Positions 3,899 to 60,726 are shown, counted from the stretch's first letter. The stretch: 64,000 bases of DNA from a virus (IMGVR_UViG_3300044212_000090), one strand, 5' to 3'. Numbers and translations: made by a program. The notes: generated by a model not told the origin, from the letters alone.

Positions 3899-4858
3899 AT
3901 GAGCGACCAACCGAGAAAGCCCAACGGGCAGTATGATTTCGACCCCAGCGCAGGGGCGAATGACCTGCCGAGCCTGAACGTCCCGAAGGTGGCTGGCGGC
4001 GATTCGCACGGCCTTTCGGAGCGCCGCGAGCGCATGGCCTCGCTGATCGACGGCGAAGGCGAGCCGACCGAAGATGACCTTGCCGGGCTGTCCCCGACCG
4101 CCCGGACCATCGTCGAGTGCGAGTGGCGGGAGCATGCGTACTCCGCGAAGGCCGCAGCCAACCGCAAGTGGAACAACCGCCACACGCCCTCGAAGTACCG
4201 GCGCACAAGCGAAGAGGAGGATGACCGGCATGCCGCCGATCTGCGCTACGAGATCGACTGCTCGCATGCCGCCTCGTCCCTCGACGACGATTCGTTCGCC
4301 GCGCTCTCCGTGCACAGCTCGGAATGGCTGGCGAACGGCGAGGCCATGCCCTCGATGACCCGTGAGCGCCAGCGGATGCTGCTGGACGTGGGCAACCGCA
4401 GCGCCGCCCAGGCCGTGGCATCCCGCTCCTCTTATCCCGACATGGTGAGAAGCGCGCTCGACCGCGCCGAGAGCCGCGACGGCATGGAGGAGCGCGCCGA
4501 CGTCGCGGTGCTGGCGGCGTCCAATCCGAGCTTTCCCGTCGATGATGCGATGGCCGAGGCGCGGAATCATGCGCCCTCCGACCGCAGCGCCATCTACCGG
4601 CAGGTCGCCAATCGCGAGGACGCGCCAGAGGATGTCAAGGAAGGCTGCCGACAGTACATCCGCGACAACCGCACGCCCCGGGAGCAGGGGCTCATGGGCG
4701 CCATCACCTGGGACAACGAGGCGCGCGCCCGGCAGTCGTACATGGAGTCGCACGGCGGCTGGGATCAGGAGGACTACAACCGCTCGCAGGGGCGCAATCC
4801 GAACGCCACCCTGTCCGAGAGCAATCCGTACAGCCCGGACTTCAAGCACCGGGCCTGA
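3899..4858 (+). CDS. hypothetical protein carrying the conserved N-terminal QPRKPNGQ-DFDP-AG-DLPSL motif (family member 1)
   Basis: 319-aa ORF with AAAGGA RBS; N-terminal 28 aa shared with ORFs at 20743, 53909..55108 and 60046..60726. Confidence 0.6.
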   Translation: MSDQPRKPNGQYDFDPSAGANDLPSLNVPKVAGGDSHGLSERRERMASLIDGEGEPTEDDLAGLSPTARTIVECEWREHAYSAKAAANRKWNNRHTPSKYRRTSEEEDDRHAADLRYEIDCSHAASSLDDDSFAALSVHSSEWLANGEAMPSMTRERQRMLLDVGNRSAAQAVASRSSYPDMVRSALDRAESRDGMEERADVAVLAASNPSFPVDDAMAEARNHAPSDRSAIYRQVANREDAPEDVKEGCRQYIRDNRTPREQGLMGAITWDNEARARQSYMESHGGWDQEDYNRSQGRNPNATLSESNPYSPDFKHRA

Positions 4859-4985
4859 CGCATATCGATGTCCATGAACATGAATCCAGAGGCGGCGTTC
4901 GCCGCAGCCGAGCGCCGGGACAGGCGCCATCATCCGTTCCGCGCCATCCTCGCACGGCTCGTGCTCCTGAGGGAGGCGTGACGCC

Positions 4986-5363
4986 ATGCGGTTCGCCGAT
5001 CTGAAGCGTTCTCTGGACGGGCGGCTGGCCCGGCGCGAGCTGAATTGCTACGTAGTCTCCATCCCCGTGCTGGGCCGCGACGACATGCCGCTGGCGAAGC
5101 TGGCGTACGACTCGACCGGCCCGAGCCTGATCGACGATTCCTTAAGCGACGAGAGGGACATCGCCGTGGACTTCCTGCTGCCCGCGCTCATGGAGTGCGA
5201 TGTGAAGCCGATCTGGGGCGACGCTTATGACGGCTTCCCGGGCGTGGCGGGCGTCCGATTGGAGCCGGTGAGCATCTTCGACCTGGCCGAACACGCCAGC
5301 CCCGAGCGGCTGCCCCTGTGGCTGACCGACCTGTTCCGCATGGCGCGAGGGGAGAGCGCATGA
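4986..5363 (+). CDS. hypothetical protein
   Basis: 125-aa ORF with GGAGG RBS and normal composition. Confidence 0.45.
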   Translation: MRFADLKRSLDGRLARRELNCYVVSIPVLGRDDMPLAKLAYDSTGPSLIDDSLSDERDIAVDFLLPALMECDVKPIWGDAYDGFPGVAGVRLEPVSIFDLAEHASPERLPLWLTDLFRMARGESA

Positions 5364-5648
5364 TCGCGCTGAAACGGCTCTTGAAGGGCGAGCGCGGGGA
5401 ATAATGCGGAGGGCGAGCCGGAAAGCCCTTCGCGGCGCCTTCCGGGCGTAGCAAATGGGACGCATTGAGCGGTCATGAGGTCGCGGATGTTCGGAGCATG
5501 CTGCGGGGTTCTTCCCGCAAGCGCCCGGATGCCGACGGCCTGAAACAAGACCTGCCGCGAGCCCCAACCTGATCCGCACATCCAAACCTGAAGCGGCTTG
5601 CGGCGGAGTTCAGGACAGGACTAACGTCTAAGCGGTAGACTTGAGGGT

Positions 5649-6272
5649 ATGAACCAGCCCTCCATGACTCCCCGCAAAGCGGCCATCTACCTGCGCATAT
5701 CGCTCGACCGCGAGATGGACGGTCTGGCTATCGACCGCCAGCGCGAGCAGTGCGATGCGCTCGCCAAATACCGCCAGTGGCAGGTTGTCGAGACCTACGT
5801 CGACCAGTCGAAGAGCGCTACGGACCGCACCAAAGTCCGCCCTGCCTACGACCAGATGGTCGCTGACTACAAGGCTGGTGCCTTCGACGCCATCATCTGC
5901 TACGACCTCGACCGGCTCACTCGCCAACCCCGCCAGCTCGAAGACTGGATCGACGCATCCGAGCTGCGCGGCCTCGCCCTGGTCACCGCCAACGGCGACG
6001 CCGACCTCTCCACCGGTTGCTACACCGCAGGGGGCACTGGCGACATACCCAGCCTGTCCGACTTCGAGGACGCCTACCAAGGCCAATGGGACAGCTCCCG
6101 TGAGTACGCTGAACGGCTGGCCGACGACATCGGTCTCACCGACGGCTGGCCGGAGGAAGCCACCCGCTACTTCGACTGGGGCGCTGGACCCGAGACCTGC
6201 GCTTCGACTACACCGTCGCCGACGCCCCCGATGGTGGCGTCTTCGTGTTCCGCAACTACTGAACTCGCCTGA
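5649..6272 (+). pseudogene. serine recombinase (resolvase/invertase catalytic domain), truncated remnant
   Basis: AIYLRISLDREMDGLAIDRQREQC catalytic-Ser region and DLSTG motif present; sequence diverges right after DLSTG and lacks the E-helix/HTH or large C-terminal domain. Confidence 0.5.
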
Positions 6273-6315
6273 ATCCCTCAGAGGTCAGATGGGCCTCTGA
6301 GGGATTCGTCTTTCA
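6272..6315 (+). terminator. rho-independent terminator
   Basis: Hairpin ATCCCTCAGAGG-TCAGATGG-GCCTCTGAGGGAT followed by a T-rich tract. Confidence 0.55.
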
Positions 6316-6414
6316 GTCGAAATCGACCTACCGAGGCCCTCTTCTTGCTGGCCTCAATGCAACGCAACTGATACAATTTGAGGTAGAAGGTAACCGTAAG
6401 ATGAAGGGCTGGAC

Positions 6415-8412
6415 ATGGCGAACGAGAAGTCGACGGACCAGATCGTCCGTGACATGCTGCGCGAGATCGGCGTCATCCGCCCTTGGGAGCAGGACGGTGG
6501 TCCGCAGTGGAAGCGTGACGCCCTCAAGGGTGGCTCGAAGTCAGCGACAGGCACTGCCGAGGGTAAGCCCGAGTTCGTCTTCCTCTCCGGCGGATTCGTC
6601 GTGGTCGTCGAAGATAAGAAGGATGTGCAGCGCACTCGGCACCTCGTCGATGGCGACCCGACGACCGAGTTCCCGTACCGAGCCGACTATGCACTTAACG
6701 GTGCCATCCACTACGCCCAGACGATGCTCGCCAACGGCATCCCCTATGACAAGGGCATCTTCGCCGTCGGCGTCGGTGGTGGCGAGGTCCACCACGAGAT
6801 CGCCGTCTCCTACCTCGCCCCCGGCTTTGTCAAGCACCTCGACGACCTCGACAACCTCGACGTGTTCGCCGAGGGTCAGATCGGCGAGTACTACGCCGTC
6901 CAAGTTCTCGGTCGGCGTCCGCGCGCCGAGGTGCAGCTCGACGACGTGCGGGCTGCTGCCGCGCGCCTCCATGAGGGGATGCGCAACTACGGCTCGGTGG
7001 AGAACGACCGCAAGGCCCCCCTGGTCTCCGCGATCCTGCTGGCGCTCCAGAACCCGTACTTCGACCTCGACCGTCTCACTAGCATCTCGCCGGGCAACAA
7101 CTACCAGGTCTGGGACGGGCGCATCATCTATGACGCAGCCGAGCAGTACATGAAGTCCGAGGCGCTCATGCCGCAGGCCAAGATCGGAACCCTTCTCGAC
7201 CAGTTCTCCTTCATCAAGACCGCACCCCAGCTCAACCGTGCCCACCGCGACCTGGGCGAGTCGCCGCTGAAGTGGATGGCGCGCATCCTGGCCAACGACG
7301 TCTACCACGTCGTTACCGACCCCTCCATGACCGCCTTCGACGTGCTCGGCAACTTCTACCACGAGTTCATCTCCTACGGCGGCGGCGACGGATCGGGTCT
7401 AGGTATCGTCCTCACCCCTGAGCACGTCACCACGCTCATGGCAGAGCTGATCGACGTCAACGCGACCGACTACGTGCTCGACCCCACCGCGGGCACCGCG
7501 TCCTTCCTTATCGCCGCCATGCAGCGCATGTTCGACGACGCTGGGGACAATGCCGCACTCCGCGAGGACATCCGCAAGAACCGGCTCTACGGCATCGAGC
7601 TGCAAGACAAGCTGTTCGCCATCGGGACGACGAACATGATCCTGCGCGGAGATGGCAAGGCGAACTTCCGCCGCGACTCCATCTTCGAGGCGCCCATGGC
7701 AGAGATGCGAGGCGATGTGAAGCTACCCGACGGCAGCATCGCCCTCGGCCACGGCTTCACCAAGGTATTGCTCAACCCGCCATACTCCCAATCCAAGGAC
7801 AAGAACACCCGCAACCTCTCCGAACTGGCTTTCATCGAACGTGCCCTGTCGTTCCTCAACCCCGGCGGAAAGCTCGCCGTCATCGTTCCCCAGTCCGCCA
7901 TGGTCGGCAAGACCAAGGAGGACAAAGCGCGCAAGAAGTACATCCTCGAGCACCACACCCTCGACACCGTCATCACGATGAACCCGATGACGTTCGCGAA
8001 CTCCGGGCATACGCCGCATACCGTGATCGCCATCTTCACCGCCGGGCGTCCCCACCCCAAGGACCACAAGGTGCGCTTCGTGAACTTCGAGAAGGATGGC
8101 TGGGTAGTCGCGCCTCATCGTGGGCTTGTCGACGACGGCACTGTCGCCTCGCGCCGCAAGCATCTTCTGGAGGTCCTGCGCGGCGACGCTCAAGACGACA
8201 CCAGCTTCATCGTGCGCTCTGAGGTCGCTGCCGAAGACGAGTGGCAGCACAGCTACTTCTACTTCAACGACCAGCCGCCCACCTACGAGGACTTCATGGA
8301 CACCGTAGCTGACTACGTCGCCTGGCAGGTCGACATGCACGCTCACGGTCTCGGCGACCTGATCACACCATCCACCGCAGCGGACGAGACCACTCAGGAG
8401 GAAATAGCATGA
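6415..8412 (+). CDS. Type IIB (BcgI-like) restriction-modification enzyme, fused endonuclease-methyltransferase subunit
   Basis: 665 aa. N-terminal PD-(D/E)xK-like segment (FVFLSGGFVVVVEDKKD), gamma-class N6-adenine MTase motifs (LDPTAGTASFL motif I, NPPY motif IV). Size and S-subunit partner match the BcgI A/B architecture; no separate HsdR present. Confidence 0.5.
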   Translation: MANEKSTDQIVRDMLREIGVIRPWEQDGGPQWKRDALKGGSKSATGTAEGKPEFVFLSGGFVVVVEDKKDVQRTRHLVDGDPTTEFPYRADYALNGAIHYAQTMLANGIPYDKGIFAVGVGGGEVHHEIAVSYLAPGFVKHLDDLDNLDVFAEGQIGEYYAVQVLGRRPRAEVQLDDVRAAAARLHEGMRNYGSVENDRKAPLVSAILLALQNPYFDLDRLTSISPGNNYQVWDGRIIYDAAEQYMKSEALMPQAKIGTLLDQFSFIKTAPQLNRAHRDLGESPLKWMARILANDVYHVVTDPSMTAFDVLGNFYHEFISYGGGDGSGLGIVLTPEHVTTLMAELIDVNATDYVLDPTAGTASFLIAAMQRMFDDAGDNAALREDIRKNRLYGIELQDKLFAIGTTNMILRGDGKANFRRDSIFEAPMAEMRGDVKLPDGSIALGHGFTKVLLNPPYSQSKDKNTRNLSELAFIERALSFLNPGGKLAVIVPQSAMVGKTKEDKARKKYILEHHTLDTVITMNPMTFANSGHTPHTVIAIFTAGRPHPKDHKVRFVNFEKDGWVVAPHRGLVDDGTVASRRKHLLEVLRGDAQDDTSFIVRSEVAAEDEWQHSYFYFNDQPPTYEDFMDTVADYVAWQVDMHAHGLGDLITPSTAADETTQEEIA

Positions 8413-9470
8413 GTGTGCTCGACACTTTTGATTTCCAGCCAATGCTGATCACCGACGTGTTCAGACCACACAAAGGGAAGCGTCTTATTGCCGCTGATAG
8501 AGAGCCCGGCAACGTGCCGTTTGTAGGCGGCTCTGAGAGTTTCAATAGCATCACTGGCTTCTCTGATGTGAAGCCACTATTTCCGGGTGGTTGGCTGACA
8601 CTTACGTACAACGGTTCGGTAGGTCATGCAAAACTGCAACCGGCCCCATTCTTCGCCTCGGACGACGTGATCGCCCTAGAACCACTCAGCGACAAGGCCA
8701 ATGCTTCAGCTTTGCTGGTTCTTGCCTCGATCATTACGCGCGAGTGTGTCGCGAAGTACTCCTACGGTGCGAAACTCAATCTTGCCCGCCTTATGAAGCA
8801 AACCATCATGCTTCCTGTCATCACCACTCCAGGCGGCACGCTGACCCCAGACTGGGACGGCATGACCCGTCTCGGCGAGGAGCTTTTCTCCCAGGTTCGC
8901 GACAACACGCACAGCGTTCGACAGACTCACGCTGGCGACGACGACACACTCCAGGACCTGAGGTTCGAGCCCATGTTCATTACGGATGTGTTCGAGGGCT
9001 ACCGTCAAGCCCCAGCATGGCTCAACACCAATCAAGTCAGGGGAGGAGCGCCCCGCTACCCGCACGTGACCAACACGGCACGTGGAAACAGCGTCGCCAG
9101 CTTCATCGACCGCCAGGAACAAGCACCCAACCGAGGCAATGCAATCACCATTGGCATCGACACCCAAGTCGTTGCCTACCAGCCTGTTCCTTTCTACGGT
9201 GCGACCAAGGTCTTCGAGCTACGCAATCCCAGCCTGAATGAGGACAACGCGCTGGTTCTGATGGCAAGTCTGCGCCAGGCCATCACGAAGTTCTCATGGG
9301 GTCACAAGGCCAGCTCTGCCCGTCTTCAGGCGACCCGCATCATGGTCCCCGTCGTCACCGACGCCTCGGGCGAGGATGTCGTCGACTGGGACGGCATGAG
9401 CGCCTACGGCCACGCCCTTCGAGTCCGCACAGAACGATCCTTGACTCCCGTCCTCGGAGACCTCCCATGA
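8409..9470 (+). CDS. restriction-modification specificity (S) subunit with two target-recognition domains
   Basis: 353 aa with two internal repeats (FDFQPMLITDVF... / LRFEPMFITDVFEG...) typical of HsdS/BcgIB-type TRDs; translationally coupled to the upstream gene (ATGA overlap). Confidence 0.6.
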   Translation: MSVLDTFDFQPMLITDVFRPHKGKRLIAADREPGNVPFVGGSESFNSITGFSDVKPLFPGGWLTLTYNGSVGHAKLQPAPFFASDDVIALEPLSDKANASALLVLASIITRECVAKYSYGAKLNLARLMKQTIMLPVITTPGGTLTPDWDGMTRLGEELFSQVRDNTHSVRQTHAGDDDTLQDLRFEPMFITDVFEGYRQAPAWLNTNQVRGGAPRYPHVTNTARGNSVASFIDRQEQAPNRGNAITIGIDTQVVAYQPVPFYGATKVFELRNPSLNEDNALVLMASLRQAITKFSWGHKASSARLQATRIMVPVVTDASGEDVVDWDGMSAYGHALRVRTERSLTPVLGDLP

Positions 9471-16254: not shown

Positions 16255-17181
16255 ATGAACAAGAAGACAGCGCTCATGCTGACCGCCATCGTCGTAGCCG
16301 CGGCCCTCGCCATCGGGGCATGGTGGATATTCCTTCGTCCGAAGGCAGCGGCCCCGAGAGCGAAGCCGAAGGCATCCGCGTCCGTCTCCGCCCCGACCGC
16401 GCCGAACGCCGACCAGATAGCCGCGCTGACCGATATGGCTACCCGCTTCGAGCACGCCTCGCGCGACTGGGGCGTGGATCCCAACGCGATGACGGACGTG
16501 GATGCGAACAAGCTCAAGGACGGCGCGGCGGTCGTGAGCTTGTACCGCACGCCGTCCACGCTGGACAACGGGCCGCTGGATGCTGTCTCGTCGATCGACC
16601 GCAAGGGCGTGGGCTGGGATGCTCCCAGCCCCGTGTGCGCCGACACGACTCTGGAGCCATGCCACGCCATGCCGACCATGCTTTCCTACTGGGCCAATCA
16701 GCACTGGTCGATGGGCGCGCGGCTTTCGAGCGTCGACGCGCAGGTGAGGGATGCGAGGACGGTGGAGGTCAAGGGCACGGTGCGCGTGGGGCTGTGGACC
16801 ATGCCGGATGCCGACGTGACGCGCGTGTATGGCCCGCATGCCGCCTGGGGCTTCTCGCCCGCTGCGGGCGATCAGACCTTCGACGACGTGCTGACCGTGA
16901 GCGACGGCAAGGTGACGAAGCGGGAGGCGTCCGCCGCGACGGACTGGATCGCGGACCCCTACTACGGCTCATGGGCGAAGAGCGACAACCCCGCGGACGG
17001 CACCATGTCGTGGGGCAATCGCGTCCAGCCGAACATCCCGCTGCTGGGAGATCCCCCCTCGCTCGGACTCGACAGGCGCGACCCCGGCATGGATATGCTC
17101 AAGAGCAGCAACGATGCGTCGTCCCCCGACTGGAAGAGGATCATCGACGAGGCAAGCCATGACCTGCCGAACCACCCGTGA
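16255..17181 (+). CDS. membrane-anchored hypothetical protein
   Basis: N-terminal TM segment (LMLTAIVVAAALAIGAWWIF) and large extracytoplasmic domain; GACGCATAT motif 9 nt upstream of ATG. Confidence 0.55.
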   Translation: MNKKTALMLTAIVVAAALAIGAWWIFLRPKAAAPRAKPKASASVSAPTAPNADQIAALTDMATRFEHASRDWGVDPNAMTDVDANKLKDGAAVVSLYRTPSTLDNGPLDAVSSIDRKGVGWDAPSPVCADTTLEPCHAMPTMLSYWANQHWSMGARLSSVDAQVRDARTVEVKGTVRVGLWTMPDADVTRVYGPHAAWGFSPAAGDQTFDDVLTVSDGKVTKREASAATDWIADPYYGSWAKSDNPADGTMSWGNRVQPNIPLLGDPPSLGLDRRDPGMDMLKSSNDASSPDWKRIIDEASHDLPNHP

Positions 17182-18423
17182 TCAGCCCTTCTCGTAGCGC
17201 CAGTACTCGGTGAACTCGCTGTAGAAGCCCGGCTTCTCGATGCTCACCTCGCCGCCCTGATCGCCCGGATTGCCGTCTTCGATGCCGCCGGGGTGAGCGT
17301 GGTGGGCGCCTACGGTGGCATTGTCGCCGTCGTAGAACTCCACGTGCTCCGCCGGATTCAACAGAATATCGCCTCGCTTGAGATCCTTGGCGGGGTCGGA
17401 CGGCATGTCATGACGCGCGAATCCCATCGTCGCAAGCTGCGAACCCATGCTGTAGGTCGTCCATGGCCACCCGTCTCCGAGCGGGAACTTGGCCCCGTCG
17501 CGCATCGAGTACCATACGAAGCTGGAGCAGTCCATATCGGGATCGTGGGCCCTTCGCGCCTGCGAATAGCCGATGGAGTCGTCGGCGGCGTACTTGTCCG
17601 CCTGCTTCATATAGGCTTCGACCTTGGCGTTGTCCGCCACCGCCCCGCCCGACGTCTCGGATCCGCACGATGCTGCGGGGGAGGCGGCGGATGCCCCCGC
17701 GCCCGCAGCCGGCGCCGCGCTGGCCGTGGCGGGGAAGCTCACGGATCCGATCTGCGCGTAGTACTGCTCCGCGGCGGTCCGGCGGGCATCCCATGTCGCG
17801 GAGATGCTCGCCGGACGCTCCCAGCCCGCCTCCCAGGCCCCCGCGGCCACTTTGGGATCGGTGGCGGTCAGCCAGGTCGCATACAGGGAGTTGCCGGAGA
17901 CCGGCAGGCCCAGCCCCGCCGCCTGGTCGATGAAGACGTTATTGAAGTCGCTCTGCGCGGTCATCGCCAGCAGCGTGGCCTGTGCGGACGGATCGGAATC
18001 CGACTTCCCCGCCAGCCCGTGCTGCGCGAACTGCGCCGCTATCTTCGAGCGGGGCGTCCACTGGGCCAGCCCGTACCCGTTATCAGGGCTGGCCGCGGTC
18101 GGGTTCATGCTCGATTCGGCCTGCAGATTGCCCATCACGCCCGCAGTGGAGGCGCGAGTGTACCCCTTGTCCGCGAACGCCTTCGCCACCGTCAGGACGA
18201 TGTCGCTCGCCGGCGCCGAGGTCGCCCCTGCGGCGGCATCGGCGACGGCGCCCGGGCAGTCGGAACCCGAATCGCCCGCATTGACGACCTGGTTGCCCGC
18301 CGCGGCGGAGATGGAGGCGGACTGCCCGCCTATCGCGCCCATGCCGGAGATGACGAGCACCGCGACGACGAGCGCGGCGGCGCCTATCGCCAGCGCCTTG
18401 AGTCTGAAGAGTCTGCCCAGCAT
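17182..18423 (-). CDS. bifunctional cell-wall hydrolase (lysozyme-like domain plus NlpC/P60/CHAP-like peptidase), CwlT-like conjugation hydrolase
   Basis: Signal/TM N-terminus, GYGLAQWT lysozyme-type motif, C-terminal Cys...His peptidase signature (DCSSFVWYSM ... NPAEHVEFYDG). Confidence 0.65.
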   Translation of the reverse strand: MLGRLFRLKALAIGAAALVVAVLVISGMGAIGGQSASISAAAGNQVVNAGDSGSDCPGAVADAAAGATSAPASDIVLTVAKAFADKGYTRASTAGVMGNLQAESSMNPTAASPDNGYGLAQWTPRSKIAAQFAQHGLAGKSDSDPSAQATLLAMTAQSDFNNVFIDQAAGLGLPVSGNSLYATWLTATDPKVAAGAWEAGWERPASISATWDARRTAAEQYYAQIGSVSFPATASAAPAAGAGASAASPAASCGSETSGGAVADNAKVEAYMKQADKYAADDSIGYSQARRAHDPDMDCSSFVWYSMRDGAKFPLGDGWPWTTYSMGSQLATMGFARHDMPSDPAKDLKRGDILLNPAEHVEFYDGDNATVGAHHAHPGGIEDGNPGDQGGEVSIEKPGFYSEFTEYWRYEKG

Positions 18424-18500
18424 GCGAAGAGGCTATGCGCCGGGCTCACCGGGACGCATATGGCCTATGACACCTCACTATATATAAAGGAGCATCTACC

Positions 18501-19563: not shown

Positions 19564-20733
19564 ATGACTGATCAACATATGCCGCCGCTGCTCCACGCGC
19601 TGGACGGAGCGGACTTCGCCAACCCCTGGATGTGGGCCGTGCTCTCGCTCGTGCTCGTGTGCTATCTCCTCGCCGCCCACGCTTGCGAGAGCACGGCAGG
19701 CAGGGTCTTCTTCGCGCTCCTCGCGCTGCCGGCCGCATGGCTGGGCTTCTGCGCCCTGGACTTCGCCTTCGCCATCTTCACGCCGAGCGGGCAGAGCGTG
19801 AGCTTCTTCGCCCGCATCATCGACTGGCCGTTTCGGCTCATCGTCGGCATCGGGCTCTTCGTTCTCACGCTCATGCCGCCGTGGCTCAAGAGCGAGGAGA
19901 AGAACATCTCCGCCCCCGCGAAGAAGACGCCGGCGAAAGCGGGAGGGCTGGCCTCTCTCGCCCGGCGCTACGGCATCGCCAAGGCCGCGCCCGGCGAGAG
20001 AGCCGTGCAGGGCTTCAAGTGCGTCGACCACGATGCGGGCGGCGAGGCCACGGCGCTCTATGGCAGCTCGCAGTGGATGAATCTGGAGGACGAGCGCAGG
20101 GCGGGCCGTCTCTACGGCACTCCGGGCGTGGGTCTGGAGTCCTCTGGATTCGGCTCCGGCTCGATAGGCTCGGGCCGCCGGGGCGAGGAGACGCTCGCCC
20201 GCATGATAGCCGCAAGCCATCTCAACGTCATCGCGTTCTACTCGCTGTATGGCCGTGATGCGGCCGGCAGCCGCACGGATGCCGACATCGACTGCGTGCT
20301 GCTCGGCGCCGACCTGCAGGGCCATGCGCGCGCATGGTTCGTGGATGCGAAGAACTACAAGGGAGGCTCCGACACGCGCTACGTGGATGCGGGCAACGGC
20401 TCGCTGGCCCGCATCTCCAAGTCCCTTCACGCCTTCGTGTCCGGCTCGAGGGGATCCGTCACGCTGCCCATGAGCGGCAACATGGCGGCGCAGCGCGCCC
20501 ACTGGGAGGGCGTCCTCAGGTCCCACGTCATCGCCTCGACGTGGTGCGTGTGCATGACGCCCACCGGCGAGCACGGAGCGCCTGACGCGTCCGGCGTCGC
20601 ATGGCCGGGGAGCGTCCCCGCATGGAGCGTGGAGCAGCTCGTGTCGAGCATCAGGAGCGCGGCGCTCGCGCCGGTCGACTCCATACGGGCGGCGGACATC
20701 AATCTGTTCCGGTCGGCCCTGAAAGGCGCATAG
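19564..20733 (+). CDS. membrane protein with C-terminal NERD-like (nuclease-related) domain
   Basis: Three N-terminal TM helices; C-terminal DCVLLGADLQGHARAWFVDAKNYKG resembles the NERD core; GACGCATAT 8 nt upstream of ATG. Confidence 0.45.
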   Translation: MTDQHMPPLLHALDGADFANPWMWAVLSLVLVCYLLAAHACESTAGRVFFALLALPAAWLGFCALDFAFAIFTPSGQSVSFFARIIDWPFRLIVGIGLFVLTLMPPWLKSEEKNISAPAKKTPAKAGGLASLARRYGIAKAAPGERAVQGFKCVDHDAGGEATALYGSSQWMNLEDERRAGRLYGTPGVGLESSGFGSGSIGSGRRGEETLARMIAASHLNVIAFYSLYGRDAAGSRTDADIDCVLLGADLQGHARAWFVDAKNYKGGSDTRYVDAGNGSLARISKSLHAFVSGSRGSVTLPMSGNMAAQRAHWEGVLRSHVIASTWCVCMTPTGEHGAPDASGVAWPGSVPAWSVEQLVSSIRSAALAPVDSIRAADINLFRSALKGA

Positions 20734-20742: not shown

Positions 20743-21300
20743 ATGAGCGACACACAGCCAAGGAAGCCCGACGGGCGGTTCGACAACGACCCGAATGCAG
20801 GAGGCGACGACCTGCCGGCGCTGGTCGACCCGGCGGACGAGTGGGACGGCGGCATTCTGACCGGCCCGGGCAAGGCGCGCGACCCGCACGAGCTGGCCGC
20901 GGCCACGCCATTCATCGACAAGGCGAAGGCTGGCCGCATCTCGTCGCGCCTATCAGATGCGGGCGTAAGCGCGGGCGTCATCGGCGACGAGGAGACGCGG
21001 TTCGAGTCCTCAGGCGGGCTGATCGTGAAGGCCGCGGGATCGCGCGGCGAGGCCACGGTGCAGGGGCGCTCGAAGTACTATAGCGTGAGCAGGCTCTCGC
21101 GGCGGCGCATGTCGCTCCGCGAGACCATCTCCCGCAAGGGCTTGTCGCACATGAACGAGCGCGCCCGCGTGGACTTCGGGCCCGACACCTATTACGAAAC
21201 GGAAGAGCAGGCGGCGGATGCCGCCATCGCATGGTGCCGGGACGGCGAGCTGATGCCGGGCGTTGGCAGGGACCATTACAGCGATATCAAGGGATTCTAG
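20743..21300 (+). CDS. hypothetical protein with conserved N-terminal QPRKP-G-FD-DPNAG-DLP-L motif (family member 2)
   Basis: MSDTQPRKPDGRFDNDPNAGGDDLPALV N-terminus; 185 aa. Confidence 0.55.
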   Translation: MSDTQPRKPDGRFDNDPNAGGDDLPALVDPADEWDGGILTGPGKARDPHELAAATPFIDKAKAGRISSRLSDAGVSAGVIGDEETRFESSGGLIVKAAGSRGEATVQGRSKYYSVSRLSRRRMSLRETISRKGLSHMNERARVDFGPDTYYETEEQAADAAIAWCRDGELMPGVGRDHYSDIKGF

Positions 21301-38768: not shown

Positions 38769-38770
38769 AA

Positions 38771-44848: not shown

Positions 44849-46726
44849 CTAACCCTGTTCCATGATTCGCGCCAGCTCGGAGGCATCCATGAGCTGGGCC
44901 CCGGTGCCCATATCCTTTGGTTTTGGCTTCGTGCCCGTGCCGTCATCTCCGCCGCTCGGCGCGGGCGTAGGGGCCTCTCCGCCGAACTCGGCTTTTGAAT
45001 CCTCCCACCCCTCCTTGAGCAGCCGAAGGATGCTGTCGGTGGCGAGCGCCTTCTGCAGCGGCAGATCGATGCGCTGGGTGAGGAAGTTCATGAAGGCGCC
45101 GTCGATCTGGTCATCAGGCCCGTGCTTGCGCAATGTGTCAAGGTACTTGCCCCTGTCCACGTCGTCCGGCAATCCCAGCAGGTCGACCAGGCGGCGTCCG
45201 AAGACCTCTACATCCGACATGCCGTCGCGACCGGCCCAGTAGGTCTTGTATACGCGCCCGCGCTGCCCCGAGAGCTCGGCTCGCCCCACGCCCTTCGACA
45301 CGCCGCCATCCCTGATGTAGACGGGAATCTCCGGCATGTCATGCTGATCATGGAAGGTCGCCAGGATGGCGGAGCTGGGGTTCGCGCCCTGCACCATGCG
45401 GTGTCCGAAGAGATCGCGGGTCGTGGGCCCCAGCCCGGAGCGGTCGTTCACGGTCTGCGAGGCCAGGATGAGGATGTATCCCTGCGCCCGGGCGGTGCGC
45501 AGAATGCGCAGGGCCTTCATCTTGATGTCGTACTCGGCCTGCCCGTTGTATTGCTGCTCGAAGATGGCGGGGGGCACCTTCTCCGGATTCGGGATCGATT
45601 TGACCATGATGGCGGCATCGACGAGCGAGGAGAACTCATCGACGACCACGACGTGCCGCGGGTATTTGGCCTTGGCCCAGTCGGGGATGGAGTACCAGTT
45701 TTGCCAAGCATTCTCCTTCCACACCTTCGCGCGTTCGCCATGCTCCACATCCTCGATGAGGAGATTGAGGACCCCTGCTGACTGCTGCACGGACTCGCAG
45801 CCCCAGTGCCCCGGCGTGACCCACGGGCGCAGCCAGTAGTAGTCGGTGGCTTTGTTCGACAGGTCGATGATGGAGAGGAGCGGCTTCTGCGCGACCAATC
45901 CCGCGAGGATGTTGTTGATCGCCACGCTCTTGCCGGAGCCTCCCTCGCCGCCGATCAGCAGGAACGAGGATTCCTTCCAGTCGACGGACGCGGTTTCGTA
46001 GTCGAGCCCGCCCGCCTTGGGCAGCAGCACGCCGAACGGGGTTCTGGAGAACTGCTCTGGAGAGCCGAGTCCGTCAAGGGGGAAGGGGTGCACGGGAAGA
46101 AACGTCGGCGGCTCGCCGGGATGGATGTCGATCGTGCCCTCGCGCGCGTCCGCATCGAAGTACCAGCCGGGCCGGCCTATCTGCAGGCAGGCGGACTGCA
46201 CCTTGGAATCGTATTTGTCGGACGTGTAGATGATCGAGGAGTCGAGCGTACAGTGCCAGCCGCCGTCCTTCGCCGGCTCGACTTTCGCCTCCCAGGGCTT
46301 GAGTCCCATCGCGGCGGTGAGGAACCCCCGCGCGGTCGTCTGCTCGGGGCTCAGCCGCTCGAAGATGGCTTTGCCCTCGTACGGGCGGAACTCCGTCATC
46401 TTGAAGCCCGGCAGCGAGCTCTCGTAGTTCGCCTGCACCTTGGCCGCCGCGCTCGGCGTGCACTGGGACGCCGCGAGCTTGACGACCTTGCGGTCCCCGT
46501 TGTCCTCCACGGAGGCCACGGAGCGGTCCACCAGCACGGCGACGTGACGCTCTGCGTCGATGTAGTCCAACTCCGCGTCGGAGGCCTCTGGCGTCTCTCG
46601 CCTGAATTTGTCGAGCATGCGGTCGAGCAGGGCGCGGTGCGAGGCGTCGCCCACGGGGTCGAAGACGAACGACGCGCCCGCCTTGTTCTTGATCTTGGAT
46701 GGGTAGCTGCACTCAAATTTCTGCAT
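44849..46726 (-). CDS. FtsK/SpoIIIE-family DNA translocase (conjugative transfer ATPase, TraB/TcpA-like)
   Basis: Walker A GGEGGSGKS, Walker B HVVVVDEFSSL, 625 aa. Confidence 0.8.
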   Translation of the reverse strand: MQKFECSYPSKIKNKAGASFVFDPVGDASHRALLDRMLDKFRRETPEASDAELDYIDAERHVAVLVDRSVASVEDNGDRKVVKLAASQCTPSAAAKVQANYESSLPGFKMTEFRPYEGKAIFERLSPEQTTARGFLTAAMGLKPWEAKVEPAKDGGWHCTLDSSIIYTSDKYDSKVQSACLQIGRPGWYFDADAREGTIDIHPGEPPTFLPVHPFPLDGLGSPEQFSRTPFGVLLPKAGGLDYETASVDWKESSFLLIGGEGGSGKSVAINNILAGLVAQKPLLSIIDLSNKATDYYWLRPWVTPGHWGCESVQQSAGVLNLLIEDVEHGERAKVWKENAWQNWYSIPDWAKAKYPRHVVVVDEFSSLVDAAIMVKSIPNPEKVPPAIFEQQYNGQAEYDIKMKALRILRTARAQGYILILASQTVNDRSGLGPTTRDLFGHRMVQGANPSSAILATFHDQHDMPEIPVYIRDGGVSKGVGRAELSGQRGRVYKTYWAGRDGMSDVEVFGRRLVDLLGLPDDVDRGKYLDTLRKHGPDDQIDGAFMNFLTQRIDLPLQKALATDSILRLLKEGWEDSKAEFGGEAPTPAPSGGDDGTGTKPKPKDMGTGAQLMDASELARIMEQG

Positions 46727-52559: not shown

Positions 52560-53140
52560 ATCCTGTGACGCATATGCGTATCCAGCGCGCGACGTCAACG
52601 TTCTCCATAAAGACGATGGCGGCGGCAGAAGCCCCTTACTGCTTCGTAACGGACCGGGCCAGCGCCGCGCGCATTGCTTTCCTTCGGGACGCACACGAAA
52701 CACTGCGCGGCGTCAACGTCGCTGCATCGAATGGTTTCAACAGCATTCGGCGCGGAGCGATGGCGGGGAGCAGCCCGATCGATCACCTCGGCAAGCCACG
52801 ACCCCCGCCAGCGCCGCGCCTTTTCCTCTTATCGGACGCATAGCGCGTATCGCACGGCGTCAACGTCGCCGCCGCGGATCCTTTGAGACAGTCCGTGGGC
52901 GGATCGATGGCGGGGATAGGACGATTTAGACAACCTTTTTCGTCTGCTGAAGCCCCGCCAGCGCCGTGCATTTTCCTTATCGGACGCATAGGCATTATCA
53001 GAACGCGGCGTCAACGCCGCTGCCCTGCGGGCTTTACGGGATCATTCACTCGCGGGATTGCAGAACGATGGCGGGCGAGGATGGTCTGATAACCTTCCAC
53101 CCGATGACCCCGCCAGCGCCGCGCTCTTCCTCTTTTCAGA
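52560..53140. repeat. tandem array of four degenerate ~140-bp repeats
   Basis: Each unit carries GCGGCGTCAACG(T/C)CGC ... GATGGCGGG ... CCCCGCCAGCGCCG(C/T)GC ... TT(A)TCGGACGCATAG. Confidence 0.7.
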
Positions 53141-53831
53141 ATTCCGGCTCGTCCGGGTCTGCGATGAACGAGCCGCGCACCTCCCTGATGCCCGCCAGCC
53201 TCTTCCAGACATCCTCGGGGATGTCCACTCGCTCGCCGTTCGGCCCGTCCACGCGCTTCACGCCCCAGATGCCCACCAGCGCCGCGTCGTGCAGCGCGTG
53301 GGAGAAGTCCGGGCCGCTCACGGGCAGCGCTCCGGGGATGGCCCAGGCGTTGAACGGGGCATCTAGGGGATCGAGCGTGGGGCGCGGATGCTCGGGGGGC
53401 TGGTATCGCTTCGGCGCGACGGCGAGCAGCGCATGCGCGAACTCGACCGGCATCTCGCGGGCGACGTGCGCGACTGTCTCAAGGGACAGGGCGCGGGCCA
53501 TGGCCTCGTCGCCGTCCATGCCCCGGACGTGCAGCGCCGAGGCGAATGCGGCGGCCGTGGCGAACGGCATTCCGTTCAGGCCCAGCGCCCCGTAGCAAGA
53601 GCGCAGCCACGACCATGACTCGCCGTCGTCCTCAGGCACGCGACAGGGAACATCCGGCAGGAACTCGAAGTACGGGCGCCAACTCAGCTCGCCCTCATGC
53701 ATCGCCGCATCCCGCTCGCGCCCGTGGCCCGGCTGCTCCGCGCGATGCATGGCGATGGCGGCGTCCGCCGCGCGGAGCAGCCCGTCGTCGGCGGACGAGA
53801 GCGAGAAGGCATTGAAGTCTATGGTCAGCAT
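53136..53831 (-). CDS. hypothetical protein
   Basis: Start MLTIDFNAF 10 nt after GACGCATA motif. Confidence 0.45.
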   Translation of the reverse strand: MLTIDFNAFSLSSADDGLLRAADAAIAMHRAEQPGHGRERDAAMHEGELSWRPYFEFLPDVPCRVPEDDGESWSWLRSCYGALGLNGMPFATAAAFASALHVRGMDGDEAMARALSLETVAHVAREMPVEFAHALLAVAPKRYQPPEHPRPTLDPLDAPFNAWAIPGALPVSGPDFSHALHDAALVGIWGVKRVDGPNGERVDIPEDVWKRLAGIREVRGSFIADPDEPEF

Positions 53832-53908
53832 GGGCCCCGGTATGCGTCGGAAGACGCCAGCGGCCCGTGCAGGAGACATCCCGCACGGGCCGCTCTGTTC
53901 GATGTCTT

Positions 53909-55108
53909 CTAGGCTTCCTGCTCCTCCATGCTCACGTCGATGTAGCCGTCCTGCGCGTGGTAGTCATGCATCGCATCGACGTCATAGGAGGTGTACTGCT
54001 CTCCGGCCTCGCGGCACAGCCGCATGGCGCGGCGGGTCTCTTTCGAGGGCACGAGCATATCCGTCTGCGCCCCCGTCAGCTCCTTGCCCGCGTCGTAGCG
54101 GCGCTGCACGTCGTCGAAGACGGCCTGTATCTGCGCATCGGTGGCGGAGCCGCCGAGCTCGGAGACGGCGGCACGACGCGCACGCCCCTCTGGGGAATTG
54201 ACCCCTCGGACAATCGCATCATGCATGCCCGGAGTCGCGTACGCCCTGCCCTTCGGCGGATGGACGGTGATGTGGGCCTGCCAGCCGGTGCCGTAGTCGT
54301 CGGTGCGGCAGCTGACCTTGTAATCCGCCGGTATCTCGCCGCGCCTCTGGAGGGCCTTGATGTCGCGCCGCATGCCTTTGACCCGCTCGGCGGGGGAGAG
54401 ATGCGAGTCGTAGCGCCCGCCCGTGAAGGCCGTGCCGCCGGTCTGGCCCACGGTGGTCGTCCCCGGCTTGATGGGGTTGGGGATGCCGGAAAGCTCTCCC
54501 TTGATGTAGTGCGCGGCATCGTCCGCGTTTGTGAAATGCCTGGAATCCGCGTCGTTCCAGTAATCCTTGTCATCCTCGTGCACCTCGACGGAGCACGCCC
54601 CGCCCAGATGCTCGACGGCCACCAGATGCGTGCCGTCGCCCTTGTCGAAGAAGCGCCTGAAGTCGGTGCCCGCCCGGCGGGAGCCGTCCTCCCTGAGGCC
54701 GAGCTCCGCGAAATCATCCGGCGGCGCTTCGATGGGGCGGGAGCTTCCCCCCAGCTGGACCGCGATGTAGGTCGCCGCCTCGAACGCGGTTGCGAAGTGG
54801 TTGGAGTTCACGGCGTTCTGGTAGTCGTCATCGTCTGCCGTGCGCAGCTCGACATCGCAGCTCCCGTCCGCGTTATCGGTGGCCCACAGCTGCTCGCCGT
54901 CTCCCTTGGCGAAGGACCGCCTGAGCTGGTTGCCGCTATTCCAGACATCCTCCGCTTCGAGGCCATACTCCTCGAAGACGTCCTGCGGCCCCTGTGCTGC
55001 GGATGCACCGAGGCTCGGCAGGTCGCCTGCGCCCGCGTTGCCCTTGCTGTCAAACTCGCCGCCCGTGCTTGCGGGCGATCCTTTCGGTTTTCTTGCCTGA
55101 TTGCTCAT
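53909..55108 (-). CDS. hypothetical protein with conserved N-terminal motif (family member 3) and two internal ~55-aa repeats
   Basis: MSNQARKPKG...FDSKGNAGAGDLPSLG N-terminus; repeats FxKGDG..L.A......C.VE...DDDDY.N...S.HF..A..AA.YI. Confidence 0.5.
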   Translation of the reverse strand: MSNQARKPKGSPASTGGEFDSKGNAGAGDLPSLGASAAQGPQDVFEEYGLEAEDVWNSGNQLRRSFAKGDGEQLWATDNADGSCDVELRTADDDDYQNAVNSNHFATAFEAATYIAVQLGGSSRPIEAPPDDFAELGLREDGSRRAGTDFRRFFDKGDGTHLVAVEHLGGACSVEVHEDDKDYWNDADSRHFTNADDAAHYIKGELSGIPNPIKPGTTTVGQTGGTAFTGGRYDSHLSPAERVKGMRRDIKALQRRGEIPADYKVSCRTDDYGTGWQAHITVHPPKGRAYATPGMHDAIVRGVNSPEGRARRAAVSELGGSATDAQIQAVFDDVQRRYDAGKELTGAQTDMLVPSKETRRAMRLCREAGEQYTSYDVDAMHDYHAQDGYIDVSMEEQEA

Positions 55109-55116: not shown

Positions 55117-55398
55117 CTATGCGAACCGGAGCTGGCGATACGGCCCGTACGCCTCGATGAGGCTGGCGGGCACCACGTCCAAACGGGCCAAGCGATTGCG
55201 CTCCGATATCCATGTGACATGGGGCATCTCCGCTTCGCGGTAGAGGCCGGGCGCCAGATGCTTCGCGTTCCCCTCTTCATGCCGGGCGACGACCAGCTCG
55301 GTGCGGTCGCCCTCGGCGAGGTAGAGGTGTCCGTCCGGAGTGCGGTAGGCGCGCTGGTGGGTGTTGCGGATGAGATAGGGAGTCGGGTAGGTCTTCAT
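55117..55398 (-). CDS. hypothetical protein
   Basis: 93-aa ORF with normal composition. Confidence 0.45.
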   Translation of the reverse strand: MKTYPTPYLIRNTHQRAYRTPDGHLYLAEGDRTELVVARHEEGNAKHLAPGLYREAEMPHVTWISERNRLARLDVVPASLIEAYGPYRQLRFA

Positions 55399-55690: not shown

Positions 55691-55899
55691 CCGACGCATA
55701 ACCTGACTTAACCCCCGCGCGAAGCCTGCCCGAGGCGCCATGTCGTTCCACATCGTTTCTGGCGCCGACGGGCCTTCGCGTGGGGCGCCTCGTATCCGGA
55801 TAGGGGAAAGCGCGGCAGCTGCCGGTCCACTGGCCGTACGTTTCCTCGATGAGCTGCGACGCTATTGTCGGCAATCCGTCCCATCCGCGCATAGACATC

Positions 55900-56199: not shown

Positions 56200-56205
56200 C
56201 CCATC

Positions 56206-57205: not shown

Positions 57206-57212
57206 GGAATCC

Positions 57213-57605: not shown

Positions 57606-57743
57606 GGAGGGCGGAGAATCGCCGCCGCGACTACATAGGTCGTTCGGCACCTGAATGGGCAGCAGCTCTTTGCTCTCTATATCCCATGCATCCCGCCCTT
57701 TTCCGACGCATATCCTATGGCAACCCAACAAAGGAGAAATGTC

Positions 57744-59110: not shown

Positions 59111-59124
59111 GGCCGAATAACACG

Positions 59125-59172
59125 AAAAGACCGACGCCGCAGATACCTCTATCTGCGGCGTCGGTCTTTTTT
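59125..59172. terminator. bidirectional rho-independent terminator
   Basis: AAAAGACCGACGCCGCAGATA...TATCTGCGGCGTCGGTCTTTTTT. Confidence 0.7.
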
Positions 59173-59180
59173 ATGTCAGC

Positions 59181-59945
59181 CTAGAAGACGAAGTCTCGGA
59201 CTGCTTTCGCAACCGTCTGCGCGATGAGCCGCCCCTCGTCGCGGGCCGCGCTCTTGCGCATCTCGATCATGACCGATGCCAGCCCGTGCTTCGGGTCATC
59301 GAGATTGTTGGGGACGATGGATCCTTTGAAGACCTCATTGAGACCCACGCCCAGCCCGAGGAATTCCAGTTGCTCGCCGAGCATAATCGCCAGCTCCATG
59401 CCCCGCGCGTCGCCGTTGTGCCCGAGGCACACCTGCGGGCGTCCATCGTCCGCGTGCAGCTCATAGGGCCACGGCTCGTCCGAGTAGGTGTGCACGTCGA
59501 GCAGAACGCACTGGCCGAACTGGGCGATCATGCGCTGAGCGACATGGGTAAGCATCGCATGGTAGGGCCAGTAGACCTCGGCCATGCGGTCGCGCACTTC
59601 CAGATCGTCCGGCTCCTGACCGGGCCTGTAGATGGGATCGCCGTTCTCGTCGCGCGTGTAGACGACGCCCATGCCGACGGCGTTCATCTCCTCGCGCTCG
59701 TCGGGGTATCGTTCGACGTCGCAGTACACCCGGCTGACATCGGTGCCTAGCAGCTGGCCCATGGCGCGCTGCGCGATGGTCTCGCCCACGACATCGGCGT
59801 AAGAGTCCGCGAGATTGCAGATGGTCCGCTGCGTGCGCCTGACATCCGCCAGTCGCATGGAGTCGAAATCACGAGCGAGGCCCGCATGCGGCACGGAGAC
59901 CAGCGCCGGGAAGTCGCCGAAGGAGTTCAGTGAAAGAGTCTGCAT
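59181..59945 (-). CDS. N-formylglutamate amidohydrolase (FGase)-family zinc hydrolase
   Basis: ALVSVPHAG ... HNGDARG motifs typical of the FGase/HutG-like family; start MQTLSLNSF 11 nt after GACGCATA. Confidence 0.6.
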   Translation of the reverse strand: MQTLSLNSFGDFPALVSVPHAGLARDFDSMRLADVRRTQRTICNLADSYADVVGETIAQRAMGQLLGTDVSRVYCDVERYPDEREEMNAVGMGVVYTRDENGDPIYRPGQEPDDLEVRDRMAEVYWPYHAMLTHVAQRMIAQFGQCVLLDVHTYSDEPWPYELHADDGRPQVCLGHNGDARGMELAIMLGEQLEFLGLGVGLNEVFKGSIVPNNLDDPKHGLASVMIEMRKSAARDEGRLIAQTVAKAVRDFVF

Positions 59946-60045
59946 CCGATGTTGTATGCGTCCGGAGAGAAGGAGAAACAGCCGCCGCGCGCGTTTGGGA
60001 TATACGGATTGGATGAGGGCGGCTGTATAACTTCTCTTATGGGTT

Positions 60046-60726
60046 CTAGTCTTCCGCGACCAGCCTTGCCGCTTCGACCGCATCGTCGTACTCAACATAC
60101 GGCGGATTCTCCGGCGCATTATCTGCGACCGCCATCGCCACCACGTCGGGCCGTCCCAGCCTCTCATAATTCCACCCGTCAGGGGCGTATTCGTCATTCC
60201 ACGCCACGCGGGCGACAGGCCTGAAGCCGTGGCGACCATAGAGGCTCGGCAGACCCCCTCGGATGTCGTAGCAGTCGAGCCTTCTCGCGCCCCTCTCCAC
60301 GGCCTTCTCGACCAGTGCGTCGCCGCCGTGCTCGCCTTTGTACGAGAACACGGATACCAGCTCGTCGCCATCCGCGATGGCGAAGCCGGTGCGCCCGTCC
60401 TCGTCCAGATAGAGGTCGTCGCGCAGATAGTCGTCCGCGTCGTGCACATCCACCGCCGAAGCCATCGGATTGTTCTCCTTGAGCGCCGCGATGCGATCGC
60501 GGAACAATTCGGCGTTCTCCGGCGTGGCGTCCAGCTTGAAGAAGAGCTTCGGCGATGCGCTGGGAGCCGCGCCGTCCAGACTCACGCCGCCTACAGGCTC
60601 GCACGGGACCTTGTTTCCGCCGATGCTCAGGTACGCCTTGCGCGGGTTCAGGCTCGGGAGGTCGGATGCCCCCGCGTTCGGGTCGAAATCGAATTGCCCG
60701 TTGGGCTTCCTAGGCTGATTGGTCAT
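60046..60726 (-). CDS. GNAT-family acetyltransferase with conserved N-terminal motif (family member 4)
   Basis: MTNQPRKPNGQFDFDPNAGASDLPSLNP N-terminus; C-terminal GNAT-like core (ELVSVF...GGDALVEKAVERGARRLDCYDI...LYGRHGFRPV). Confidence 0.55.
   Translation of the reverse strand: MTNQPRKPNGQFDFDPNAGASDLPSLNPRKAYLSIGGNKVPCEPVGGVSLDGAAPSASPKLFFKLDATPENAELFRDRIAALKENNPMASAVDVHDADDYLRDDLYLDEDGRTGFAIADGDELVSVFSYKGEHGGDALVEKAVERGARRLDCYDIRGGLPSLYGRHGFRPVARVAWNDEYAPDGWNYERLGRPDVVAMAVADNAPENPPYVEYDDAVEAARLVAED

Follow-up and report, generated by a model that had tools for sequence, protein, structure and literature searches.

An N-terminal tag predicted to be disordered on unrelated cargo proteins of Bifidobacterium-type conjugative elements

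Why would four otherwise unrelated proteins begin with the same few residues? This question is raised by IMGVR_UViG_3300044212_000090, a 64,000-nt stretch of DNA (hereafter the window; 66% G+C), in which a sequence-only reading had singled out four genes, here named A to D, whose products open with a common motif of about 28 residues. Our analyses indicate that this motif, hereafter the tag, is a real, selected and previously uncatalogued family that is restricted to Bifidobacterium-type conjugative elements. We describe the tag and the cargo proteins behind it, and weigh what the tag may be for.

All four open reading frames (ORFs) were strongly supported by gene calls based on the G+C content at third codon positions (0.80-0.87), and their translations confirmed that each opens with the common motif at its initiator Met. 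A profile of the four N-termini searched against the six-frame ORFs of the window retrieved exactly these four copies at 63-77 bits, the next best ORF scoring 8 bits. The window consensus is M-x-x-Q-x-R-K-P-(0 or 7 aa)-G-[QRE]-[FY]-D-x-x-[PG]-[NS]-A-G-x-x-D-L-P-x-L, and the tag occurs in a short form, M[ST][DN]QPRKPNGQ[FY]DFDPNAG..DLP[SA]L, and a long form, M..Q[AS]RKP[KA]GSP...GG[EQ][FY]D..[GP][NK].G..DLP.L. Both forms have the same layout over 26-33 residues, namely a basic half (RKP, with or without KGSPxxxG), the link G-[QE]-[FY]-D and an acidic half ending in DLPxL.

On the plus strand, gene A carries the short form MSDQPRKPNGQYDFDPSAGANDLPSL (3899..3976; translation, profile and codon analysis) ahead of a mildly acidic cargo of about 293 aa (3977..4858; isoelectric point (pI) 5.1). 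Gene B, on the same strand, has a short form with one extra Thr (20743..20823; translation and profile) followed by a 158-aa cargo (20824..21300) which had been taken for a basic domain and is in fact near neutral (pI 6.4). Neither cargo belongs to a known family. Gene C, on the minus strand, bears the long form (55010..55108; translation and alignment) with the insertion GSPASTG, which the alignment shows to be 7 residues long and not 8 as first counted. Its cargo (53909..55009) consists of two repeats and a C-terminal domain in common with the tagged proteins P0020 and P0021, and gave a weak DUF5811 match; the duplication described from the sequence is genuine, with a unit of about 80 rather than 55 residues. 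Gene D, also on the minus strand, combines a short tag (60649..60726; translation and AlphaFold model) with a divergent GNAT-fold domain of the phrog_2563 family (60046..60648; structure model and PDB matches).

The motif-coding sequences are only 64-78% identical between the window genes, with 6-9 synonymous codon differences per pair. We further compared 15 tagged genes with available DNA, from the window and related contigs, by the Nei-Gojobori method (105 pairs, 22 alignable tag codons). The proportions of synonymous (pS) and nonsynonymous (pN) differences were 0.68 and 0.23 in the tag, compared with 0.63 and 0.71 in the 22 codons directly 3' of it. Nucleotide identity across these genes was 0.27 upstream of the tag, 0.66 within it and 0.31 after it, and conservation ends abruptly after DLPxL. 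Because synonymous sites have diverged as in unrelated sequence and the amino acids alone are held, the conservation acts at the protein level. The proposal that the motif is kept by selection on the protein rather than reflecting a recent DNA duplication was thus borne out, pS being saturated and pN one third of the background.

In the structure model of D, tag residues 1-29 form a low-confidence coil, with a predicted local distance difference test (pLDDT) score of about 54 compared with more than 90 for the domain, and the tag is accordingly predicted to be intrinsically disordered. It is rich in G, P, D and N, and the tag sequences lack the hydrophobic stretch that Sec or Tat signals would require. 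The tag also behaves independently of what follows it. Tags are 50-85% identical between proteins whose cargos show chance-level similarity. Among homologous cargos the tag is usually the better conserved part; P0020 and P0021 share 96% identity in the tag and 34% in the cargo, and P0028 and P0029 share 79% and 30%, respectively. Proteins with closely related cargos may nevertheless bear tags of different subtypes. In addition, a 23-codon truncated tag (MSNQARKPKGSPASTGGECGFEY, then a stop codon) lies 86 nt upstream of the tagged gene P0031 (L037:13742, minus strand), and at L039:9300 (plus strand) a tag is split by a frameshift from a 362-aa ORF. These decayed and frameshifted copies point to turnover, by recombination or decay, at the tag-coding 5' ends. 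Within the window, the half-motif RQPKGAPGGIGGRFA followed by a stop codon is present at 61252..61296 (plus strand), at the 3' end of an ATG-less ORF (61093-61296) which ends in ...GRQPKGAPGGIGGRFA. This C-terminal half-tag is kept in the related contig L002, and it is probably the remnant of a tagged gene that has decayed, although the half-motif may also have been put to independent use here.

The C-terminal parts of the four proteins are indeed unrelated, as had been stated, giving only chance-level local alignment scores, and no C-terminal feature common to the cargos is conserved. Cargo pieces have nevertheless been shuffled, as indicated by P0023, in which a long tag is joined to the last ~80 aa of A, and by P0020, in which a short tag is joined to one C module and the C-terminal domain of C. 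PDB sequence searches with A, C, D and P0024 returned nothing significant. The D cargo was modelled with a pLDDT of 89 and a predicted template modelling score of 0.82, and the best 50 PDB matches found by Foldseek were all GNAT acetyltransferases (probability ~1.0, TM-scores 0.34-0.56). No GNAT match was obtained in Pfam (E<=1) or NCBIfam (E<=0.1), the sole match being phrog_2563, whose function is not annotated. The GNAT assignment of D hence stands for the fold and not for a Pfam family match.

Some tagged or degenerately tagged cargos resemble known toxins. L002 encodes a tagged Doc-like protein (L002:13661-14386; motif QWFTDGNKR; Doc-like matches in NCBIfam/PHROG-type searches) that follows an overlapping 168-aa ORF, and L008 encodes a Fic protein with a degenerate tag that scores 34.7 bits with Pfam Fic against a cut-off of 24. 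Both read QxFxDGNKR, with Gln in place of the catalytic His of HxFx(D/E)GN(G/K)RxxR. Comparison of positions ~57606-57716 of the window with L002:13158-14386 showed that the window lacks a 1.36-kb insertion holding the 168-aa ORF and the Doc/Fic-like gene. Small ORFs, some of which overlap the tagged gene, precede other tagged genes as well (112 aa before D and 93 aa before C, besides the 168 aa before Doc/Fic), and these upstream ORFs matched no known family. Overall, the cargos comprise Doc/Fic, GNAT-fold, pentapeptide-repeat and unassigned proteins, many of which are encoded beside methylases, ArdA or GmrSD.

The D cargo family provides a graded series of N-termini, from the tight tag (P0035) through MNQPREPKGAPGGTGGRF..SGLPGL, M..RRREPKG[IL]P[TI]GGRFA....SDL and ..QPRDKNGRFQ to ..RDEKGKFA. 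The group with M..RRREPKG[IL]P[TI]GGRFA....SDL includes a B. adolescentis protein found on 145 contigs, and the family also occurs without any tag or behind a long unrelated extension. This gradation indicates that the tag is an exchangeable add-on whose flavour follows the lineage rather than the cargo.

To what extent does the family reach beyond the window? An exhaustive hmmsearch of 1.84 billion representative proteins gave 16 matches at E<=1e-3, 15 of which are true; the remaining one, P0027, is a cadherin-repeat false positive with 7 partial matches. The tag lies at residues 1-3 in 14 of the 15 true representatives, and in the 15th, P0029, the start was probably called 11 codons upstream of the true one, the tag there following a likely GTG start. 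It is N-terminal in every tagged gene of the related loci examined as well. Beyond these representatives, looser forms occur in Bifidobacterium genomes and on D homologues. No curated family for the tag was found in Pfam, NCBIfam, PHROGs or PADLOC, in agreement with the statement of the sequence-only reading that no such N-terminal signal family was known, and no description of the tag was found in the literature. The profile search that had been suggested as a check therefore showed the tag to be neither part of a characterised domain nor limited to four genes.

The four proteins of the window were found in metagenome assemblies only, in clusters of 3-8 members named 'hypothetical protein', and the largest contigs with these clusters measure 209,659 and 150,294 bp. 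Searches of other collections were negative in their respective scopes. tblastn searches of 72,556 plasmids and 50,697 phages with the short- and long-form consensus yielded chance matches only, motif scans of genome contigs and of viral contigs (IMG/VR) found no true tight tag, and a DNA-pattern scan of metagenome contigs yielded 14 stretches which proved real in 2 contigs only. A word-indexed homology search with the motif alignment returned nothing, by a method unsuited to such short queries, the window proteins being present in the collection searched. Where the tag does occur, several tagged genes sit together. About 40 kb of the 150-kb contig is visible and carries tagged D, Doc/Fic, C, P0024 and P0031; B is probably there as well, because P0005, which represents its cluster, is recorded from a contig of ~150 kb. 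L039 has five tagged genes in 12 kb, one of them frameshifted, and L012 has six in 5.5 kb, mostly encoding pentapeptide-repeat proteins, so that at least 5-6 tagged genes are present per element in the parts visible.

The nature of the carrying element was assessed from its backbone genes. The window encodes an FtsK/SpoIIIE-like transfer ATPase (44849..46726, minus strand), a backbone gene common to Bifidobacterium elements and the family of pMP7017, a megaplasmid reported in the literature to be conjugative. ATPase homologues are 53-56% identical in genomes of B. castoris, B. canis, B. cuniculi and B. animalis, and 26-34% identical on actinobacterial megaplasmids including the pMP7017 family. 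The transfer backbone of the window further includes a cell-wall hydrolase with a Phage_lysozyme2 domain (17182..18423, minus strand) and a 308-aa protein (16255..17181, plus strand) homologous to the gene product that adjoins the hydrolase in pMP7017 and in Bifidobacterium loci. The conserved set consists of the hydrolase (lysozyme or glucosaminidase with CHAP), a ~1100-aa FtsK/SpoIIIE-like protein, a ~630-aa ATPase, a VirB4/AAA_10-like ATPase and two further proteins of ~280 and ~310 aa. The Pfam and PHROG scans of window proteins detected no gene for a capsid, portal, terminase or tail, and the precomputed Pfam annotation of the flanks lists none either. Judged by gene content, the carrying elements are large (150-210 kb) and of conjugative type, not phages.

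Five independent contexts place tagged genes no more than ~3 kb from a transfer ATPase. For example, P0024 adjoins a 1085-aa FtsK-like protein on the 150-kb contig, P0032 adjoins a 1279-aa AAA_10 protein, and P0067 adjoins an 852-aa homologue of the pMP7017 ATP-binding protein. Moreover, in all four Bifidobacterium loci the ATPase operon is adjoined by proteins beginning MSQPRKPKGSPNSTGGQFD..., MEQPRKPKGAPNGAGGQYD... or MNQTRRPKGSPGGTGGQYA.... Directly downstream of C, the window encodes a 247-aa protein (53136..53879, minus strand) which is a candidate partner of the tag. Its homologues adjoin the tag cluster of L012 and, in the same four Bifidobacterium loci, immediately precede the ATPase, and none was found in the homologous region of pMP7017. 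The protein matched no known family in Pfam, NCBIfam or PHROGs, and a homology search with it reached near-identical proteins only.

Tagged and transfer genes also have a start context in common. A GCATAG box lies 9 nt before the ATG of B (20728..20733, plus strand), without a Shine-Dalgarno sequence and with a leaderless, -10-like geometry; it lies 8 nt before the ATG of C (55117..55122, minus strand), 9 nt before that of D (60736..60741, minus strand) and 66 nt before that of A (3827..3832, plus strand), which has a normal ribosome-binding site. GCATAG-N9-ATG likewise opens the hydrolase and transfer ATPase genes. The sequence (C/G)GCATAG is about twofold over-represented in the window (for CGCATAG, 18 observed and 9 expected), and 10-11 boxes are followed by an ATG 8-11 nt downstream that opens a long ORF with no ribosome-binding site. 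Boxes before an ATG are located at 18433-18439, 20727-20733, 28828-28834, 34364-34369, 46736-46742, 48575-48586, 55117-55123, 55888-55894, 60736-60742 and 61403-61409, and the one at 48575-48586 is a perfect palindrome, CTATGCGCATAG. Other tagged genes have the box, which is sometimes palindromic, 35-66 nt upstream together with a normal ribosome-binding site. The geometry fits the -10 box of leaderless mRNAs and suggests that tagged and transfer genes are co-regulated.

Taking these observations together, we tentatively propose, with a probability of roughly 40%, that the tag is a recruitment or delivery signal for the conjugation machinery of the element. In this proposal, a disordered modular recognition peptide would be put on many accessory proteins of large Bifidobacterium-type conjugative elements and would dock them all to a single partner within the DNA-transfer apparatus that the element itself encodes, the candidates being its FtsK/VirD4-like ATPases and adaptors like the 247-aa protein. 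The docked proteins might then be handed into the recipient with the DNA, where they could act as establishment, anti-defence or addiction effectors. We infer both the identity of the partner and the occurrence of transfer, the delivery reading resting on context, namely the conjugative backbone nearby, the cargo of toxin and anti-defence type and the common promoter box. This reading fits best because it accommodates at once a tag that is strictly N-terminal, disordered and modular, the many proteins that carry it, their toxin and anti-defence flavour and the conjugative context. The cargo types (Doc/Fic, GNAT fold, pentapeptide repeats) match known effectors that are delivered by conjugation or injected.

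Several observations weigh against a role in delivery. To our knowledge, the characterised signals of type IV secretion systems (T4SSs) are all C-terminal or internal, and none is N-terminal. No tag was found in the 53 kb of pMP7017 scanned or by tblastn, and the absence of the tag from this conjugative relative implies that transfer as such can proceed without it. The box GCATAG lacks specificity for tagged and transfer genes, as it also precedes others. As for the partner, the 247-aa protein is the best candidate, the correlation being drawn from few loci, and its structure prediction reached a pLDDT of 38 and gave no usable model. Lastly, a possibly related half-motif is present in head-module and polyvalent proteins of phages, whose machinery differs, so that the partner could be other than a T4SS.

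This half-motif came to light in a scan for a loose form of the tag, which found a viral 787-aa protein (L043) with a sub-threshold ART-PolyVal match, where KYNENQPREPKGSPIGGRF, KYDKNQPRDPKGSPTGGQW and KYDENQLRDSRGRW stand ahead of successive regions. The strict pattern Y..NQPRD..G[RK][WF] retrieved 74 viral stretches (IMG/VR contigs L045-L118) compared with 1 for a codon-scrambled control. This junction motif, Y-x-x-N-Q-P-R-D-x-x-G-[RK]-[WF], mostly lies inside the protein with a Gly-rich linker behind it, and a single contig can hold as many as 4 copies; a head-module protein of Nocardia phage P3.1 has it at the N-terminus (L120:3989-4699). The short tag is in register with it (N-Q-P-R-x-x-x-G-x-[FW]), and a profile of the viral junctions matched the N-termini of the D homologues P0047 (E 9e-5) and P0066 (E 0.02). 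The same profile gave no match to the window tags, a comparison of low power in which the profile was built from regex-selected peptides. PDB searches with three large phage proteins bearing the junction motif returned nothing, and no description of this motif was found in the literature either. The graded intermediates are suggestive of a relationship between the first half of the tag and the phage junction motif, possibly through an ancestral half-motif; the relation is only suggestive because the junction profile misses the window tags. That the tag and NQPRDxxG[RK][WF] represent one ancient 'ride-along' signal, coupling effector domains to DNA translocation across phage heads, polyvalent proteins and actinobacterial conjugation so that effectors would reach the next host along with the DNA, is a doubtful extension of this idea.

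How well do other explanations account for the same data? One holds that the tag docks proteins to a common intracellular partner (a chaperone, inhibitor, protease or hub of the element or the host) without any export, which would hold the cargo inactive, time its degradation or localise it. A disordered short linear motif under protein-level selection, the many toxin-like cargos with small ORFs upstream, and the transfer of pMP7017 without tags would all suit such a role, and a tag flavour that tracks lineage rather than cargo is expected from co-evolution with any single partner. However, an ordinary docking motif needs no strict position at residue 1, the repeated closeness to transfer ATPases would be left unexplained, and no chaperone or protease is consistently adjacent, save for proteins like that at 53136-53879; we consider this explanation rather unlikely. 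Somewhat less likely again is that the tag is a processing or pro-peptide site derived from polyvalent-protein junctions, cut by a protease of the element or host so as to activate a 'released' cargo module. Proteolytic processing is known for polyvalent proteins (PMC5512222), the two junctions KYNENQPREPKGSPIGGRF and KYDKNQPRDPKGSPTGGQW of L043 precede successive domains, and the series QPRDKNGRF, RDEKGKF and RRREPKGxPxGGRFA to the tight tag on one cargo family, together with the contrast between viral stretches and scrambled control, agrees with such an origin. On the other hand, the phage-junction profile does not recognise the window tags, the lineage-specific half D..PNAG..DLPxL equals the first half in conservation, which goes beyond the need of a cleavage site, and no protease is consistently linked, Peptidase_M50B having been seen once.

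The presence of the half-motif at the N-terminus of the P3.1 head-module protein and in phage polyvalent-like proteins, a loosely tagged gene on one IMG/VR contig and the PHROG match of the D cargo could alternatively be explained if the tag were a capsid-packaging signal by which a phage or phage-plasmid loads tagged proteins into virions for injection. We give this very little credence, since virion genes are missing from the scanned window proteins and from the Pfam annotation of the flanks, neither 50,697 phage genomes nor IMG/VR contain a tight tag, and the backbone is that of conjugative megaplasmids. It is equally improbable that the conservation lies at the level of nucleic acid, as a 5' cassette junction for recombination or as a translation-initiation region of leaderless mRNAs. 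Decayed and frameshifted copies and tag swapping do show recombination at the 5' ends, and several tagged genes have a leaderless-type start context; yet synonymous sites are as divergent as in unrelated sequence while the amino acids are held, the same tag is found on genes with ordinary ribosome-binding sites, and untagged genes use the same start context. A beta-clamp-binding motif, mimics of the SSB C-terminal tail or the FtsZ C-terminal peptide, a Pup-like GGQ/GGE, an AT-hook and an FHA-binding site were also considered and dropped for want of a test or a fit.

The proposed delivery tag can be compared with several known systems. Conjugative T4SSs translocate toxins of toxin-antitoxin (TA) modules, for example VbhT-BID and PezT-BID (Harms et al. 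2017, PMC5675462). The likeness to Bartonella VbhT and its BID domain lies in Fic-type and TA toxins that are encoded on a conjugative plasmid near transfer genes and carry an added non-toxin module, the same toxin families also existing without it. The BID domain is folded, ~100 aa long and C-terminal with a basic tail, and serves a Gram-negative VirB-type system, whereas the window tag occupies the very first 26-33 residues, is predicted to be disordered and occurs in an actinobacterial FtsK-type context, and thus is not a BID-type or C-terminal translocation signal. The F-like T4SS of pED208 translocates the plasmid proteins ParA/B, SSB and PsiA/B (PMC8406263, PMC11288057), that is, several accessory or establishment proteins of one element reach the recipient with the DNA, as proposed here. 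The pED208 substrates have no common tag and depend on the relaxosome, whereas the window proteins do have a common tag.

A framework for effector delivery by polyvalent proteins of phages and conjugative elements has been set out (Iyer et al. 2017, PMC5512222). These proteins are similar to ours in that an effector domain follows a peptide of the QPR..G.[FW] type, which lines up with the short tag, and in their toxin and anti-defence cargo, and intermediates of the form NQPR[DE]PKGSPxGG[RQ][FW] bridge to the long tag. In contrast to the tag, the phage junction is mostly internal, continues into a Gly-rich linker and lacks the D..PNAG..DLPxL half. The tagged proteins resemble polymorphic toxins in keeping one constant N-terminus ahead of varied, unrelated C-terminal parts, toxin folds among them, in having several paralogues on each element and in showing signs of recombination. 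Polymorphic toxins differ in that their trafficking domains (LXG, MuF, PAAR, Rhs) are folded and tied to type V, VI or VII secretion or to phages, and no known folded trafficking domain was found in the tagged N-termini with Pfam, NCBIfam or PHROGs. Their immunity gene is normally downstream, whereas small ORFs are upstream here, and many of the cargos here are not evidently toxins. Short, cargo-independent N-terminal tags on diverse effectors and anti-restriction proteins that travel with the DNA or particle are represented by the capsid targeting sequence (CTS) on internal proteins of phage T4, by the Dar proteins of phage P1 and by the N-terminal loading signals of Photorhabdus virulence cassettes and other extracellular contractile injection systems. 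These act with virions or tail-like particles, for which no genes, head-morphogenesis genes included, were found among the scanned window proteins or in the Pfam annotation of the flanks, and they show no sequence similarity to the tag.

If the tag does direct delivery, it would be the first sequence-defined substrate tag of Gram-positive (actinobacterial) conjugation and the first N-terminal one. Sequence alone would then define which proteins the megaplasmids and integrated elements of Bifidobacterium send into new hosts, among them toxins, possible DNA mimics and modifying enzymes, and the tag could serve as a portable device for protein delivery into bifidobacteria. Should it have another purpose, it would still mark a set of at least a dozen uncharacterised accessory proteins whose co-regulation is suggested, and would still point to a very common, undescribed junction motif in effector proteins of phages.

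The remaining genes of the window complete the picture of the carrying element. A transposase gene (43783-44790, plus strand; phrog_4285, E 4e-74) is located directly beside the transfer ATPase gene. A gene (5649-6272, plus strand) that joins a resolvase N-terminal domain and ArdA in one 207-aa protein is flanked by gene A and by a type I HsdM/HsdS pair (6415-9470, HsdM at 6415-8412), for which no HsdR was seen. Four orphan DNA methylases were assigned to the window; three apparently orphan ones, two of the N6_N4_Mtase type and one EcoRI-type, are encoded at 1892-2845, 12614-13561 and 13597-14376, and methylases together with HsdM are typical of the anti-restriction loading of large mobile elements. 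Further genes encode an integrase, an SPFH/flotillin protein, a PIF1/RecD-like helicase and surface proteins with Flg_new repeats or a SpaA domain. This plasmid-like element also carries a Ro60/TROVE protein with a vWA domain (37038-39389, minus strand); across the whole window, Rfam gave no Y-RNA-type family at or above its gathering score. Four tRNA genes (Gln-CTG, Arg-CCT, Lys-CTT and Arg-ACG) form an array at 295-1047 on the plus strand. Finally, a gap of 9 nt separates gene B from the upstream gene of a 389-aa membrane protein (19564-20733, plus strand), which provides the only nucleotide similarity of the window to pMP7017 (81% over 97 nt); its homologue there is annotated as a zinc-ribbon protein and is encoded beside an ImmA/IrrE peptidase.

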